Below are positions 3,418 to 55,733 of a stretch of DNA of 64,000 nucleotides, one piece after another. The notes under the pieces were generated by a model, which was given only the letters and a program-made list of their open reading frames with translations, was not told the DNA's origin and searched no databases. The stretch is from Eledone cirrhosa (taxonomy: Eukaryota). Location: assembly GCA_964016885.1 (NCBI GenBank), contig OZ024763.1:26722001-26786000 (forward strand). The letters run 5' to 3'. Position 1 is the stretch's first letter. The number at the start of each line of letters is the position of its first letter. The translations under genes were made by a program, and so were the position numbers.

Positions 3418-3488
3418 ATTACCCACTTTACTACCCAAAGTATCGAGTACTCTGGTGCACCTGGTTCCTTACCACACTTCCTTCGTTA
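3418..3488 (+). mobile_element. Isolated tail module of hairpin family A/B between TA tracts
   Basis: TTACCCACT...CCTTCGTTA matches the tail at 3601-3679, with an internal deletion. Confidence 0.85.
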
Positions 3489-3497
3489 TATATATAT

Positions 3498-3679
3498 ATA
3501 GGAACGAGTAGGACCCCGACGGCTGAGCTCAAGCCGTTTCGACGGCTAATTCTGGACTTTTTAGTCTAGAATTAGCCGTCGGGGTCCTACTCGTTCCTAT
3601 TACCCACTCTACTATCCTAAGTATTGAGTACTTTGGTGCGTTATGGTCCATCTGGTTCCTTACCACATTTCCTTCGTTA
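3498..3679 (+). mobile_element. Asymmetric hairpin element, family A
   Basis: ATAGGAACGAGTAGG..CTGGAC arm, loop, reverse-complement arm (with a deletion between the two GCCGTCG repeats), then the tail; near-identical to 55524-55733. Confidence 0.9.
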
Positions 3680-4025
3680 GATATATAGATATATATTGTT
3701 ATGCTTTGGGAGGGTCATGTTGCCAATAAGAAATTCAGAAACGAAATATATATATATATATATATATATAAATAAAGGTATATAATACTTTATATATATA
3801 TGAAAACCCGTATGACTCTAAAACCCGGTCCGTCTGTGTGGCTACATACAGACTAGGCGTCAGTCATACAAAAGTGAGTTAGAAGCGAAACGAAATTTAA
3901 TTTCGTTTCGTAATTTGTTTTTATATATATATATATATATATATATATATATATATATATATATATATATATATATATATATATATATATATATATATAT
4001 ATATATATATATATATACTGGTATA

Positions 4026-4212
4026 TAATTGTTTCTACTTTTGGCACAAGGCCAGCAATTACCCAGTGTATTACTGGTACTTTATTTTATCGACCTCGTA
4101 AGGATGAAAGGCAAAGTTAACCTCGGCGGGATTTGAACTCAGAATGGCAAGGGCCGTAACTCTACGCGTCAAAGCATGGCGTCCGACCCTCTACCGATAC
4201 TGCCAATCCATC
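4026..4212 (-). mobile_element. tRNA-derived SINE, family 1 (core GCCTTTCATCCTT.CG.GGTCGATAAA..AAGTACCAG)
   Basis: Minus strand has A-box-like TGGCAGTATCGG, B-box GTTCAAATCC and a core shared with about nine other copies in the window. Confidence 0.9.
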
Positions 4213-4229
4213 AATACTTAATATATATA

Positions 4230-4545
4230 TTCGTCCACATATTCCTGAGAGGGTCGTGGGGCCAGAGTCCTCAAACACCCCTTCCAGCGGGTCCTGTCAG
4301 AGGCAACCGTCTCCAGCTGATTCGGCTGGATCTCCAAGCGAGACAAGCCATGATCATGGATGTTATCCAACCATCTTGTTCGGGGTCTACTCCTGGGTCT
4401 CCTGCCGGTTGGTTTTGCCCGTAAAATCTGTCCATGGATTCTTTACTGAGACATTCTAACTACATGCGCATAGTATCGGAGTTGTGATCTCTCAATTCGG
4501 AGTAGTGGCAGCTCTACCTGGAGTGACTCTCTGATCTCCGAGCTT
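4230..4545 (-). pseudogene. 3' end of an RTE-clade LINE ORF, degenerate
   Basis: Minus translation EIRESLQVELPLLRIERSQLRYYAHVVRMSQ*RIHGQILRAKPTGRRPRSRPRTRWLDNI..ASDRTRWKG matches the RTE C-terminal pattern (LRWxGHVxRM, GxRxRGRPRxRW, DRxxW). Confidence 0.85.
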
Positions 4546-5033
4546 CAAATTTGGCCAGCGATTCTTTCCTGAGACATTCTAACCACATGCCCATAGTATC
4601 AGAGCTGTGATCTCTCAATTTGGAGAGGTAGCGGCTCTACCTGGAGTGACTCTCTGATCTCCGATCTACAGATCTGTCCAGCGATTCTTTCCTGAGACAT
4701 CTTAACCACATGCCCATAGTATTGGAGCTGTCATCTCTCAATTTGGAGAGGTAGCGGCTCTACCTGGAGTGACTCTCTGATCTCCGATCTACAGATCTGT
4801 CCAGCGATTCTTTCCTGAGACATCTTAACCACATGCCCATAGTATTGGAGCTGTCATCTCTCAATTTGGAGAGGTAGCGGCTCTACCTGGAGTGACTCTC
4901 TGATCTCCGATCTACAGATCTGTCCAGCGATTCTTTCCTGAGACATCTTAACCACATGCCCATAGTATTGGAGCTGTCATCTCTCAATTCAGAGAGGTAG
5001 CGGCGCTACCTGCAACGATTCTCTGATCTCCGA
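4425..5033. repeat. About five tandem copies of a 123-bp unit derived from RTE coding sequence
   Basis: GCGATTCTTTCCTGAGACAT recurs at 4558, 4681, 4804 and 4927 (period 123). Confidence 0.95.
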
Positions 5034-5261
5034 CGCACTCTATTGTATAATAGTCGATCTCTATTTTTGGCCAAAGTAATCTGGAATTTTCCATAGACTT
5101 TTTATAAACGTGAACCCTAGTATTTCCTAGATAACAGGTCAATTGTGGGTCAAGGTATAATCAAGTACGTAAAAGTAACACTTACAAAATCGTCAGGAAT
5201 TCAAGGCAAAGTTATATTATTACAAATGAATGTCTGAAACTAAAAATTTACTCAAAAGTTA

Positions 5262-53135: not shown

Positions 53136-53796
53136 TTGTTGTTGTTGTTGTTGTTGTTGTTGGTGGTGGTGGTGGTGGTGGTGGTGGTGGTGGTGGTGGC
53201 GGCGGTGGTGGTGGTGGTGGTGGAGGTGGTAATATTGCTTTCTTGATGGTGGTGATAATAATGTTGCTGTTGTTGTTGTTGGTGGTAGTGGTTGTGGTGT
53301 TGGTGTTGGTGGTGGTGGTGGTGGTGGTGTTACTAGTAATTTTGTTTTTGTTGTTGTTGTTGGTTGTTGGTGGTGATGCTAGTGTTGGTGCTGTTAGTGC
53401 TATTGTTGATTGGTGATAATGTTAGTGGTGGTGTTGATAACGTTGGTGGTGGTAGTGCTGTTGTTGGTGGTGGTAGCGTTGGTGGTGGTGGTAGTGTTGG
53501 TGGTGGTGGTAGTGTTGGTGGTGGTGGTAGCGTTGGCGTTGATAATGATGTTTTGTGATGGATAGGATAGAGCTTTCGCAGAGATTCTTTTCCCTCAATA
53601 GTGTGTGTGTATATATATTTTTTTCATATGTAAACGAAACTTCCTGGTTTTTTCTATATTTGTCTATATTTGTGAATATTTTGAATTAATATTAATAACT
53701 CCGGAAAACCAAATCTGTGGAGTGCTTCTAATCTATTGTGAAACTTTATTCATTGATTTATTCATTGGACCTTGTTTAACCTTTAATTATATATAT

Positions 53797-54132
53797 ATGG
53801 ACACACTGGAAGAGGAAGACCAAGGTTAACGTATGTTGATGCCCTAAGGACAAACACTGTTCTGTTGGAGACGCAGGACATGGCAGCGATAATGAGGGAC
53901 AGAGACCGCTGGAGAGAACTCGTCCATGGATCTCGGGAATTTTACCCGCCTTAGATATATATGGACACACTGGAAGAGGAAGAGGAAGACCAAGGTTAAC
54001 GTATGTTGATGCCCTAAGGACAAACACTGTTCTGTTGGAGACGCAGGACATGGCAGCGATAATTAAGGGACAGAGACCGCTGGAGAGAACTCGTCCATGG
54101 ATCTCGGGAATTTTACCCGCCTTAGATAGATA
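53797..54132 (+). mobile_element. Two tandem ~160-bp 3' ends of the RTE-like LINE found at 43140-43994
   Basis: ATGGACACACT...TTTTACCCGCCTTAGATA occurs twice; reverse complement of about 43143-43303. Confidence 0.9.
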
Positions 54133-54262
54133 GATATTTATATATATATAATAGAAAAAACCAGGAAGTTTCGTTTACATATGAAAAATATTTATTCCAT
54201 ATCGACCTGTTACGCGCGTTTCGCAGAGGATTGGCTCAATGTGGCCCATAGGAGTTATAAAT

Positions 54263-54420
54263 GGTGGCGAATTGGCTGAGTCGTTGGAAGATCAGATAGA
54301 ATGTTTTGCGGTATTTGTTCTGGCTCTCAGCTCTCTGAGTTCGAATCCTGTCGATGTCAACTTTACCTTTCACCCAATTGAGGTCGATAAAAAAATACCA
54401 GTCTTATACTGAGGTCGATC
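54263..54420 (+). mobile_element. SINE family 1, diverged subfamily
   Basis: GGTGGCGAATTGGC head, GTTCGAATCC and core. Confidence 0.85.
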
Positions 54421-54743
54421 GTTCTTCCTCTATATCTCTTTTTCACTTCCTCTCTCTAGGCTTCTGTTGAACAAATCTGCTGTGTACAGACCTGCGTCCG
54501 TATATAATTTATACATATATTTATAGTATGTATTAATGAAATACTTCATATTATATATATATATATATATATATATATATATATATATAAATATATATAT
54601 AAATATATATATATATATATATATATATATATATATAAATATATATATAAATATATATATATATATATATATATATATATATATATATATATATATATAT
54701 ATATATATATATATATATATATATATATATATATATATATATA

Positions 54744-55487
54744 ATTATAATGAAATGACAGGAGGCTGGATTTGTGTAAATCCTTGAAAGGTTTATTATA
54801 CTATGATCATTTCAATGACCGGGTTCCGTATGAATCCGGTGATATCATCAGGTATTCGAAATATAATACGTGAATGTAATAGGTAAAATCCATGGGGCTG
54901 AAAATCGAGACCCGAGGGCGACCGCTATTCTGTTCCTTCAACCTCAGCCGGTCGCCCTGGAGTGACGTGGCTAAATTTTATAGTATGCTACTACCGGTCA
55001 GATGAACGAAAACAGAAAGAGATGGGAGCATAGGTTAACGTCGATCCCATGACACAAGGTAAAAGAAAACTTTCTGTTTTCGTTCATCTGACCGGTAGTA
55101 GCATACTATAAAATTTAGCCACGTCACTCCAGGGCGACCGGCTGAGGTTGAAGGAACAGAATAGCGGTCGCCCTCGGGTCTCGATTTTCAGCCCCATGGA
55201 TTTTACCTATTACATTCACGTATTATATTTCGAATACCTGATGATATCACCGGATTCATACGGAACCCGGTCATTGAAATGATCATAGTATAATAAACCT
55301 TTCAAGGATTTACACAAATCCAGCCTCCTGTCATTTCATTATAATATTTAACTCCGTAATAGCACCACCAACTACAAAAACAAAGACGGTTGAACTGCTT
55401 TACGTTGAGTACTCTCTATATTATTGCATTACGATTGACCATACGGAATAGACCAGCTCTATACAGTGGTGAACCTCAAACCTGAAT
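54744..55487. mobile_element. Inverted pair of 276-bp arms (54744-55019 / 55070-55345) plus a ~140-bp tail, between TA tracts
   Basis: Arms read as exact reverse complements by eye; each carries a hammerhead. Confidence 0.92.
55234..55291 (+). ncRNA. Type-I hammerhead ribozyme motif; mirror copy at 54798-54855 on minus
   Basis: ATAC CTGATGA T ATCACCGG..CCGGTCAT T GAAA TGATCA TA GTAT; intact core and palindromic stem III. Confidence 0.82.
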
Positions 55488-55523
55488 ATATATATATATA
55501 TATATATATATATATATATATAT

Positions 55524-55733
55524 ATAGGAACGAGTAGGAACCCGACGGCTGAGCTCAAGCCGTTTCGACGGCTAATTCTGGACTTCTGATTTTAGTCCAG
55601 AATTAGCCGTCGAAACGGCTTGAGCTCAGCCGTCGGGGTCCTACTCGTTCCTATTACCCACTCTACTACCCTAAGTATTGAGTACTTTCGTGCGTTATGG
55701 TCCATCTGGTTCCTTACCACATTTCCTTCGTTA
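55524..55733 (+). mobile_element. Asymmetric hairpin element, family A (reference copy, 210 bp)
   Basis: ~60-bp arm, loop, ~60-bp arm, ~78-bp tail, (TA)n on both sides. Confidence 0.92.

Follow-up and report, generated by a model that had tools for sequence, protein, structure and literature searches.

A short hairpin repeat family that probably derives from insertions of a Penelope-like retroelement

In a window of 64,000 nucleotides (the whole stretch of DNA that was analysed), we found a genuine and abundant family of short hairpins. These are probably (we would say about 0.7) the shortest insertions of a Penelope-like retroelement (PLE), with its 3′ ends inserted as two head-to-head copies in (TA)n. 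Two fixed ends, variable 5′ ends, (TA)n flanks and a linear unit with its stem-loop were observed directly. Because no coding partner was found, we infer membership in the PLEs from the anatomy. The PLE insertion layout is already known; what is unusual here is the 80-base one-sided tail and the partial hammerhead.

Copies of the family and their parts

The family is represented in the window by 13 pieces, if 10391-10470 and 10481-10579 are taken separately, totalling 1,907 bases or 3.0% of the 64,000 nucleotides (Table 1), and it accounts for about 0.2% of the reads in each of two DNA runs. An earlier note on this DNA had reported a hairpin of about 200 bp present about 12 times, in both orientations. 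All of its 12 coordinates bear the family, both orientations are seen, and the three loops it quoted are present as written, but full hairpins account for only 6 of the 13 pieces (A at 3499, 37789, 50637 and 55525, B at 23140 and 38592), and the linear, tailless, tail-only or single-arm forms make up the other 7. Counted by layout, 6 full and 2 partial head-to-head units, with 3′ ends outward, are found among the 13 pieces. Several copies were not what the note had taken them for: "10392", one family A hairpin in its list, is a tail-only piece and a tailless linear copy of the same orientation with (TA)5 between them; 44421, also listed as an A hairpin, is one arm joined head-to-head to a tail; at 49400, listed under subfamily B, the short arm is only about 15 bases long; 50417 is one linear tailless arm instead of a B hairpin; and the supposedly tail-only 38034 also carries about 20 bases of arm. 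No long copy with direct pseudo-LTRs flanking a body was found in the window.

Table 1. Coordinates of the family members and of their parts in the window
Feature	Position	Strand	Remarks
Family A full hairpin, reference copy	55525..55733	+	(TA)n on both sides
Short arm of reference copy	55525-55584		
Loop of reference copy	55585-55593		
Long arm of reference copy	55594-55653		
Tail of reference copy	55654-55733		80 bases
Internal fixed end	55653..55654	+	arm/tail border CCTA/TTAC; tailless arms have their 3′ end here and tail-only pieces begin here (5′)
Hammerhead-like 3′ half	55611..55634	+	CGAAA, 6-bp stem III, 7-base loop holding a palindrome, putative GTC triplet
Family A full hairpin	50637..50845	-	9-base loop identical to 55525 loop
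Family A full hairpin	37789..38002	-	loop similar to natural loop of linear unit
Family A hairpin	3499..3679	+	long arm lacks 22 bases between two AGCCGTC direct repeats
Tail-only piece, older	3419..3488	+	starts exactly at internal site; short (TA)n before 3499 copy
Tail-only piece	10391..10470	+	starts exactly at internal site
Linear tailless copy	10481..10579	+	39 bases upstream of usual tip, then arm
Upstream part of linear copy	10481-10519	+	GAAGA core remnant, 5′ strand and loop of natural stem-loop
Single arm and tail, head-to-head	44421..44561	-	3-base CTA overlap at joint; second arm missing
5′-truncated older piece	38033..38135	-	about 20 bases of arm, then tail; (TC)n at end
Subfamily B full hairpin	23140..23347	+	turn GAAC/TTCG
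Subfamily B full hairpin	38592..38792	-	turn as in 23140; tail end divergent
Subfamily B copy	49400..49520	+	about 15-base short arm; tail with internal deletion
Subfamily B linear tailless copy	50406..50476	+	one arm plus upstream sequence

The 55525-55733 copy folds with an energy of -132.9 kcal/mol (z -17; 0 of 200 shuffles). Folding of arm and tail alone gave nothing stable (z 0.4 to -0.6), and only the antisense A tail reached z -2.7. As for the recent activity proposed in the note, it appears moderate: between their two arms, the three intact A copies have 1, 1 and 2 mismatches in 60 bases, against 5 in 60 and 11 in 58 for B copies, and no two copies are identical.

Fixed ends and position of the turn

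The two fixed ends described earlier were recovered. The 3′ end of the tail is kept in 11 of 11 tail-bearing pieces, always with an adjoining dinucleotide run, and 7 of these 11 have the exact terminal CTTCGTTA. Nine of 10 tailless arms stop at one internal TTCC(TA) site, 80 bases upstream of the tail end, and an ATT is present at this internal site. The 5′ ends, on the other side, fall at six different places among the pieces. Each hairpin has one tailed and one tailless 3′ end, and each fixed end is also used singly, in direct orientation. Tail length is 80 bases in A and about 80-88 in B, and a small TGGT...ACCA hairpin lies some 12-17 bases from the tail end in both. The ends of the element read TAGG...GTTA (TAAC...CCTA on the opposite strand), and both fixed ends finish in TA; agreement stops after this TA, and the absence of TIRs at the true ends is confirmed, as is that of poly(A) and of pol III A or B boxes (both strands of the 55524 copy). 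The note had named two outcomes that would speak against its reading, a match to a described MITE with real TIRs and TSD, or uniformly distributed breakpoints; neither occurred.

With respect to the target, of 5,000 unmasked positions drawn as a sample, only 4.2% are at most 3 bases away from the edge of a (TA)n run. The flanks are microsatellite and target-site duplications are unreadable in (TA)n, a limit also noted for microsatellite flanks by PMC8557442. Six unrelated palindromes of the window share the layout of the family, with one arm at (TA)n, or at most 13 bases from it, and an extension of 32-140 bases on the opposite side.

Reads from two DNA samples were examined for the same joints (paired figures are one per sample). 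The arm-to-tail joint was found in 4,612 and 4,929 reads and the tail-to-(TA)n joint in 5,771 and 6,210, the depth where arms run into (TA)n being about 4,760 and 4,470; tailed and tailless 3′ ends occur in a ratio of about 1:1. Across the tail end, depth drops from about 11,000 to about 260. The type of head-to-head arm-to-tail joint present in 44421 was also seen at three breakpoints in reads. We do not regard the sharp starts of reads at 10512, 10516 and 10527 as element ends: all three coincide with AATT or a variant, and we attribute them to the restriction enzyme of a RAD library, which appears to cut at AATT in both arms.

The sequence goes on beyond the tip. From the copy 10481-10579 and from multi-copy reads, we could trace a linear unit of about 190 bases. 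A natural stem-loop forms its 5′ part, and it is at the loop of this structure that family A hairpins turn. Pairing of the upstream stretch with the arm start has a score reached by 40 of 5,000 shuffles, and a variant seen in 2,674 of the 3,747 reads that cover its position gives full complementarity over a 9-base block. This stretch is multi-copy (depth about 260 and 240). In X1, 43 contigs gave a consensus of its loose ends, and another, from 1,313 loose ends of reads, also includes the upstream sequence of 50406-50417. One 188-base X5 contig has upstream part, arm and tail in line. Two X5 contigs diverge just upstream of 10484, and the unit may therefore not extend into a long element; as X5 yielded only 7 contigs in 23.6 million, perhaps trace DNA, we make no claim of a second host. 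The longer parent anticipated past the tip, with a CTGANGA core and an ORF, exists to this extent, but of the core it has only GAAGA, and no ORF was seen.

In most hairpin copies the turn is limited to a few bases. The tip had been called variable, and loops do differ among A copies, but 50637 and 55525 share a 9-base loop that is absent from the linear copy, and 23140 and 38592 have one turn in common. The tails of 50637 and 55525 are nonetheless distinguished by a variant that 6,503 of 14,894 reads carry. Remodelling of the tip at or after insertion is retained only in part, given that a loop recurs between copies and that the 37789 loop resembles that of the linear parent. The subfamily B turn, with its 1-base loop, has no obvious natural loop at its position, which counts against our best explanation. 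A cut at the tip, by a ribozyme or of the RNA, was rejected because the A long arms run at least 4 bases beyond the only fitting site.

A putative hammerhead remnant in the arms

The likeness of the arms to the 3′ half of a hammerhead, pointed out in the note, holds: the 3′ core GAAA, helix III and NUH triplet of a type I hammerhead are present in canonical form, and 84 of 20,000 shuffles give such a motif by chance. CGAAA is unchanged in 15 of 15 arms, and the putative GTC cleavage triplet precedes the internal end by 19 bases and the tail end by 99. The motif GAAACGGC, said to be in each arm, is deleted from the 3499 long arm and altered in both 38592 arms, in 49400 and in 50417; mutations have disrupted the 3′ half in two long arms, those of 23140 and 38592. 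A complete 5′ core (CUGANGA or its U3-A8 variant) preceded by helix I was found in 0 of 6 copies scanned: the only trace among the upstream sequences listed is GAAGA at the 5′ edge of 10481, and a candidate helix II closing before GAAA is present only in the linear form, where it is long and imperfect. Complete PLE-type hammerhead cores do occur in other repeats of the window. Rfam returned no match at gathering score; the 150 of 596 matches listed at E<=10 were sub-threshold, to miRNA models (hairpin or microsatellite) and one pestivirus model, and the linear copy (10470-10585) gave at E<=10 no hammerhead and nothing relevant. In stem III no covariation or compensatory change was found, and conservation is much the same for a rival hairpin that uses these bases (86% versus 89% of cells). 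The putative hammerhead is probably a non-cutting remnant.

Searches for a partner or relative gave the following. No GIY-YIG domain was found in the 100 of 118 candidate window frames that were scanned, and reverse transcriptase was represented by LINE-type pieces only. Nine family-specific motifs had zero matches in the PLE consensus set of PMC8557442, and a motif search of the PMC13282606 supplement gave no family match, FASTA line breaks being able to hide short matches in both. Exact-pattern scans of metagenome contigs, viral contigs and prokaryote genomes gave 0 matches, and a literature search found no description of the hairpin family.

Origin of the hairpins

Judged by its anatomy (terminal repeat, inverted copy, one-sided tail, (TA)n target, junction palindrome), the family has the layout of the published PLE insertion unit, which the note had not recognised as a described one. 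PLE insertions have an inverted 5′-truncated copy, a one-sided tail and a (TA)n bias, the last in Neptune, Hydra and Naiad (PMC8557442). In PLE repeats of 181-218 bases from Adineta vaga, a palindrome at the inverted junction was interpreted as self-priming (PMC3846280). The tail is the stretch between two reverse-transcription starts, both strands being cut and extended with a preference for 5′-ATT-3′ (PMC11167929), and the two ends of the hairpin family appear to match these two starts. Here the inverted 5′-truncated copy, the tail at one end, the fixed 3′ end with variable 5′ truncation and the (TA)n bias are all found; the tail exceeds the 30-40 bases described for PLEs, a typical value and not a strict one (other families of the window have 32-140). 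The two ends had been proposed to be TA-microhomology priming sites on one RNA. Two sites fit, and each end is used alone; TA microhomology is compatible with the ends but not needed, because initiation was seen at sites not homologous to the cut DNA (PMC11167929).

The following pathway would account for the pieces. The template would be a terminal repeat of about 190 bases, in which reverse transcription would begin at two places, 80 bases apart. A PLE protein encoded elsewhere, with reverse transcriptase and GIY-YIG endonuclease, would nick both (TA)n strands. From one nick, cDNA synthesis would be primed at the tail end, and from the other at the internal site, which may be a second reverse-transcription start or an endonuclease cut site. 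On reaching the stem-loop (the likely helix II of a hammerhead now decayed), both cDNAs would stall or fold back, and self-priming or microhomology would join them there. The product would be a perfect hairpin tailed on one side; tail-only, tailless or arm-plus-tail pieces would be left where a cDNA ended early or where just one was made.

The EN+ PLEs (Penelope/Poseidon, Neptune, Hydra, Naiad; PMC8557442, PMC3846280), with their pseudo-LTR, adjacent inverted 5′-truncated copy and one-sided tail, have in common with the hairpin family the head-to-head arms with 3′ ends outward, single-side tail, (TA)n, junction palindrome and 5′ truncation, and the repeat length is close to that of Adineta vaga PLEs (about 190 versus 181-218 bases, PMC3846280). 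The family departs from them by its 80-base tail, its turn of few bases in most hairpins, and the fact that no ORF-bearing member was found. Poseidon of Anolis carolinensis (PMC11167929) likewise has two 3′ ends on one RNA with the tail between, an AT-rich target with an ATT motif and an AC-rich start-site sequence, and its hammerhead precedes the first start site by about 85-90 bases, compared with 99 upstream of the tail end here. However, Poseidon, tested in vitro, has a complete, protein-assisted hammerhead and an ORF, whereas in the hairpin family the internal end is only 19 bases from the putative triplet. Octopus Hydra-1_Obim, Naiad_Obim and Naiad_Ovul (PMC8557442 supplement) likewise prefer (TA)n; the hammerheads of Hydra, with a 7-bp helix II, cgaa and an ac...gt helix III, resemble our motif, Naiad 3′ ends have non-canonical half cores, and no sequence match to these consensuses was found by motif search or, for two Naiad 3′ ends, by eye. 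In the "half core" of PMC8557442, the first half is present and the second far off, whereas the hairpin family keeps the second half intact. Non-LTR retrozymes and non-autonomous Chlamys elements such as MRC1 (10.64898/2026.07.22.740005; PMC8557442) are likewise short, non-coding, related to PLE terminal repeats and presumed to be moved by PLE proteins, but they form head-to-tail arrays, with a complete type I hammerhead per unit in retrozymes, while the hairpins are dispersed, head-to-head and without complete core.

Unlikely, but foremost among the alternatives, is that the hairpin itself replicates, transcribed and re-inserted whole by a PLE protein acting in trans, as a MITE-like PLE parasite. 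It would explain the loop of 50637 and 55525 that the linear copy lacks and the one turn of 23140 and 38592, although a linear master with that loop would likewise yield identical tips. In the two B hairpins the short arm differs from the long one at a shared column, a single site with ambiguous alignment, but the three intact A hairpins have no arm-to-arm mismatch in common, loops vary among A copies, and linear, tailless and tail-only forms make up 7 of 13 pieces. The depth of the upstream stretch, only about 2% of that of the arms, would also fit, as would the fact that no long parent was seen, but library restriction cuts bias this depth ratio. We are still more doubtful of a Penelope-driven "RNA MITE", a coding-free hairpin of 210 bases replicating whole via RNA, having shed the catalytic hammerhead half and kept the substrate half (trans-cleavable by a CUGANGA partner), and having seeded tens of thousands of perfect 60-bp dsRNA stems genome-wide; if it were true, the two arms of each copy would date its insertion, as LTR pairs do.

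A non-autonomous DNA element, either a TA-targeting MITE or a Helentron type (HINE/DINE-1) with subterminal inverted repeats and a 3′ stem-loop, is very unlikely. The family is short, non-coding and of high copy number with TA at both ends, its inverted repeat begins at one end and stops short of the other, and its TGGT...ACCA hairpin recalls the small 3′ hairpin of HINE and DINE-1 (PMC4067079). But TIRs at the true ends are absent, as are the TC...CTRR ends of Helitrons, whose target is A|T, and the subTIRs of HINEs are 12-15 bases long, 38-60 bases from the 3′ end and in T-rich targets (PMC4067079), against 60 bases, 80 away and in (TA)n here; for an element needing both ends, the 5′-truncation pattern, with the 3′ end kept, and the lone use of the internal end are unexpected. 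Even less probable is a SINE-like or other non-LTR 3′ stub unrelated to Penelope, whose hairpins would be products of twin priming or of fold-back repair by the host within (TA)n, and whose hammerhead-like motif would be due to chance. RTE-like and other LINE pieces are in the window, twin priming is known for L1, and the motif shows no covariation; yet L1-type twin priming leads to non-overlapping inversions with scattered breakpoints, unlike the duplicated arms and fixed second end found here, and pol III boxes, poly(A) or a tandem-repeat tail are missing. That the hairpins are fold-back artefacts of sequencing or assembly has hardly any chance of being true. The A-type turn is not among the raw-read joints listed, from a library apparently AATT-cut in both arms, but the 1-11 substitutions between arms are unexpected in fresh fold-backs, thousands of reads from two samples contain both ends again, and one X5 contig shows a fold-back at 10521.

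Insertion by a PLE is the reading that we prefer, and its value is mainly for annotation, as stubs of this kind readily end up classified as MITEs, SINEs or unknown repeats. How the inverted unit and tail of PLEs form is called unresolved in PMC8557442 and PMC11167929. With its base-exact ends, long tail, stem-loop-tied turn and partial products together, the 190-base family is a natural data set for the two-primer model, and also a minimal template for testing it. If transcribed, the hairpins would be a large putative source of perfect double-stranded RNA.

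Anatomy of the family and its two fixed ends

The window is AT-rich, of an animal type that resembles cephalopod DNA, and only 27,423 of its 64,000 bases were left unmasked after tandem-repeat masking. With the copy at 55524 as BLAST query (E<0.01), all 12 places listed in the earlier note were found to carry the family, with no other match in the window; they amount to 13 pieces and 1,907 bases. The order in a full unit is (TA)n, reverse complement of X, loop, X, T and (TA)n, where X is a 60-base arm and T an 80-base tail (coordinates in the table). Six of the 13 pieces are full hairpins (4 of family A, 2 of subfamily B), and the earlier description of all A copies as hairpins was partly wrong, as the family also has tail-only, linear and arm-to-tail pieces. 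The true ends indeed lack terminal inverted repeats, and pol III boxes, scanned for in the 55524 copy, are absent as stated before.

The 3′ end of T is kept beside a dinucleotide run in 11 of 11 tail-bearing pieces (at the identical base in 7), and the X/T border is where 9 of 10 tailless arms end; an equally close (TA)n edge is found by chance for 4.2% of unmasked positions. The 5′ ends vary between pieces. Four sequencing runs were compared with 10381-10590, a hairpin-free stretch. In two of them, raw reduced-representation DNA runs, 25,626 of 12,467,656 and 26,320 of 12,785,554 reads belonged to the family. T depth was 11,000-16,000, falling at the T end; 5,771 and 6,210 reads passed from the T end into (TA)n, 4,612 and 4,929 crossed the X-T junction, and the depth of X running into (TA)n was ~4,760 and ~4,470. 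Based on these values, both ends are fixed genome-wide and used about equally, the ratios being biased by library cuts. Near-equal use is as expected if the two arms of most copies are one long and one short. AATT sites, where a large number of reads begin, were taken as the library cuts; these hide the A-type turn and affect every ratio.

Both arms of one insertion are expected to be identical at the start. Mismatches between them number 1, 1 and 2 over 60 bases in three A copies, against 5 over 60 and 11 over 58 bases in the B copies, so that A is, judging from the arms, younger than B. Only 1,437 of the 25,626 reads were at least 99% similar to the 10389 reference, itself carrying two private changes. 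This divergence between arms, together with the recurrence of the ends in two samples, makes it unlikely that the hairpins are an artefact.

Upstream part, turn and hammerhead-like motif

On the + strand, the place at 10392 reads T, (TA)5, 39 extra bases, then X, meaning that family sequence runs on upstream past the tip. The 39-base stretch is multi-copy, with depths of ~260 and ~240 and its own variants in the two raw runs, and a loose-end consensus was built from 43 contigs in run X1. One 188-base contig of run X5 holds the upstream part, X and T in line, and two X5 contigs part ways just upstream of 10484, so that the unit may stop short of a long element. The stretch pairs with the start of X, also in the centroid fold, with a score matched by 40 of 5,000 shuffles; in 2,674 of the 3,747 reads covering it, a variant makes a 9-base block of this pairing complete. 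Family A hairpins turn at the loop of this natural stem-loop. The 37789 loop resembles it, and is closer with a 2-base insertion found in 34 of 269 reads. For subfamily B, the continuation was given by loose read ends: 1,313 of them in run X16 yielded a consensus that agrees with 50406-50425 at 20 of 20 bases, and 1,248 in run X15 yielded one that agrees at 19 of 20. In B, the turn has roughly the homologous position and a 1-base loop, which is why joining of two strands suits it better than snap-back. Head-to-head arm-to-tail joints like that of 44421 occur in reads at at least 3 breakpoints among the joints listed; joints and loose ends reported here are among the best supported, with 67 joints and 581 loose ends beyond these.

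X contains CGAAA, a 6-bp helix III and a GTC triplet, a combination matched in 84 of 20,000 shuffles on either strand. The earlier note had placed GAAACGGC in every arm, which checking the arms upheld only in part; CGAAA itself is unchanged in 15 of 15. The natural stem-loop occupies the expected helix II place, and the linear copy 10481 starts with GAAGA. CTGANGA and TTGANAA are absent from all 6 copies scanned, Rfam gave no family match at gathering score and nothing relevant on the linear copy (10470-10585, E≤10), helix III showed no compensatory change across arms, and a rival hairpin over the same bases is equally conserved. The motif is probably a remnant, and a putative ribozyme at most. 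Complete PLE-type hammerhead cores are present in other repeats of the window, some being the U3-A8 variant described in PMC4209133 and some resembling the Hydra rows in PMC8557442.

Comparison with Penelope-like elements

In PMC8557442, units of Penelope-like retroelements (PLEs) consist of an inverted 5′-truncated copy next to a 5′ end, with a tail of 30-40 bases on one side only and a (TA)n insertion bias. PMC3846280 describes 181-218-base repeats whose inverted junction contains a palindrome, and proposes self-priming, possibly on an antisense template. According to PMC11167929, the PLE protein cuts and extends both strands with a preference for ATT, two internal RNA start sites bound the tail, and hammerhead cleavage is unnecessary. 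The present family fits these descriptions, although its tail is 80 bases long, against 30-40 in PMC8557442. Tail-only sequence starts exactly at the X/T border in 3 of 3 cases, 44421 included, and ATT is present there, which makes this internal site a possible additional cut site. Two cDNAs, one started from each end, would meet at the stem-loop, and the remaining seven non-hairpin pieces would be incomplete outcomes of this process.

Replication of the hairpin as a whole is the live alternative, as two A copies that are unlike at a tail variant found in 44% of reads have a 9-base loop in common, and the turn is the same in two B copies; a linear master carrying that loop would, however, yield the same result, and no arm mismatch is common to A copies. 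MITE, Helitron and HINE were rejected, the family failing the definitions given in PMC8969392 and PMC4067079, with no terminal inverted repeats at its true ends. Retrozymes, as described in 10.64898/2026.07.22.740005, form head-to-tail arrays with whole hammerheads, whereas here the joints are head-to-head and the six copies scanned hold no complete core. We retain, with a probability of about 0.87, that the family works like a PLE insertion unit, whole-hairpin variant included, and regard it as a putative PLE member. Among 100 of 118 candidate frames of the window, Pfam gave LINE-type RT fragments only and no source of the PLE enzyme. The family did not turn up in literature searches or in the supplements searched of PMC8557442 and PMC13282606; Repbase, Dfam and the PMC13282606 library may hold it under another label.

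Other palindromes and repeats in the window

Features of the window (positions relative to the window)
Position	Strand	Feature	Observation
55594-55653		X	arm of reference copy
55654-55733		T	tail of reference copy
3419, 10391		tail-only pieces	
10481, 50406		linear tailless arms	
44421		single arm and tail	head-to-head joint
38033		piece cut off within arm	
49400		piece with short-arm stub	
47824-48893		palindrome, 455-base arms, 99.6% identical	microsatellite spacer; 32-base extension, left only; apparently a recent PLE inverted unit of textbook form
48741, 48008	+, −	U3-A8 hammerhead cores	one in each arm of 47824-48893
38952		core related to these	helix II differs
7509-7758, 10879-10960, 38457-38554, 54744-55345, 56325-56468		five further unrelated palindromes	(TA)n adjoining or close to one arm; extension of ~64-140 bases beyond the other
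7655 (near)	−	CTGAAGA hammerhead-like motif	within 7509-7758
6945-7086		142-base hairpin, z -14.6	(TA)n directly adjoining at either end; complete CTGATGA...TGAAA hammerhead (Hydra pattern) in right arm; turn at core start
49189-49390, 7128-7299, 27369-27444		separate family	common 3′ end, variable 5′ truncation
49272		complete CTGATGA...CGAAAC core	in 49189 copy, which adjoins 49400 copy with few TA units between
43431-44420, 43617-44012	+, −	RVT_1 matches	adjoin 43146-43301; 43431-44420 region possibly an inverted LINE insertion
43146-43301		LINE-like 3′ end	also twice in tandem at 53799-54125
40688-41362	+	zf-RVT domain fragment	non-LTR retrotransposon
17501-22075		45-base satellite	102 copies, 96% matches; inside a dispersed repeat
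4025, 11082, 12773, 16049, 16270, 23555, 54258		same dispersed repeat	presumably SINE-like
55831-56001	−	single C2H2 zinc-finger match	weak (E 1e-4, under Pfam cut-off); just downstream of 55525 copy
6774-6875, 8507-8584, 8798-8903, 39223-39322		~100-base family	CAGGG...CCCTG-like inverted ends between TA runs; taken by us to be more like a true Tc1/mariner MITE
4426-5033		tandem repeat, 123-base unit	4.9 copies, 93% matches

In six unrelated palindromes, one arm abuts (TA)n or lies close to it, and the opposite side is extended by 32-140 bases, these putative tails being each single-copy here. As they share this layout, the asymmetric hairpin is likely to arise generally in this genome and not to be peculiar to the present family.
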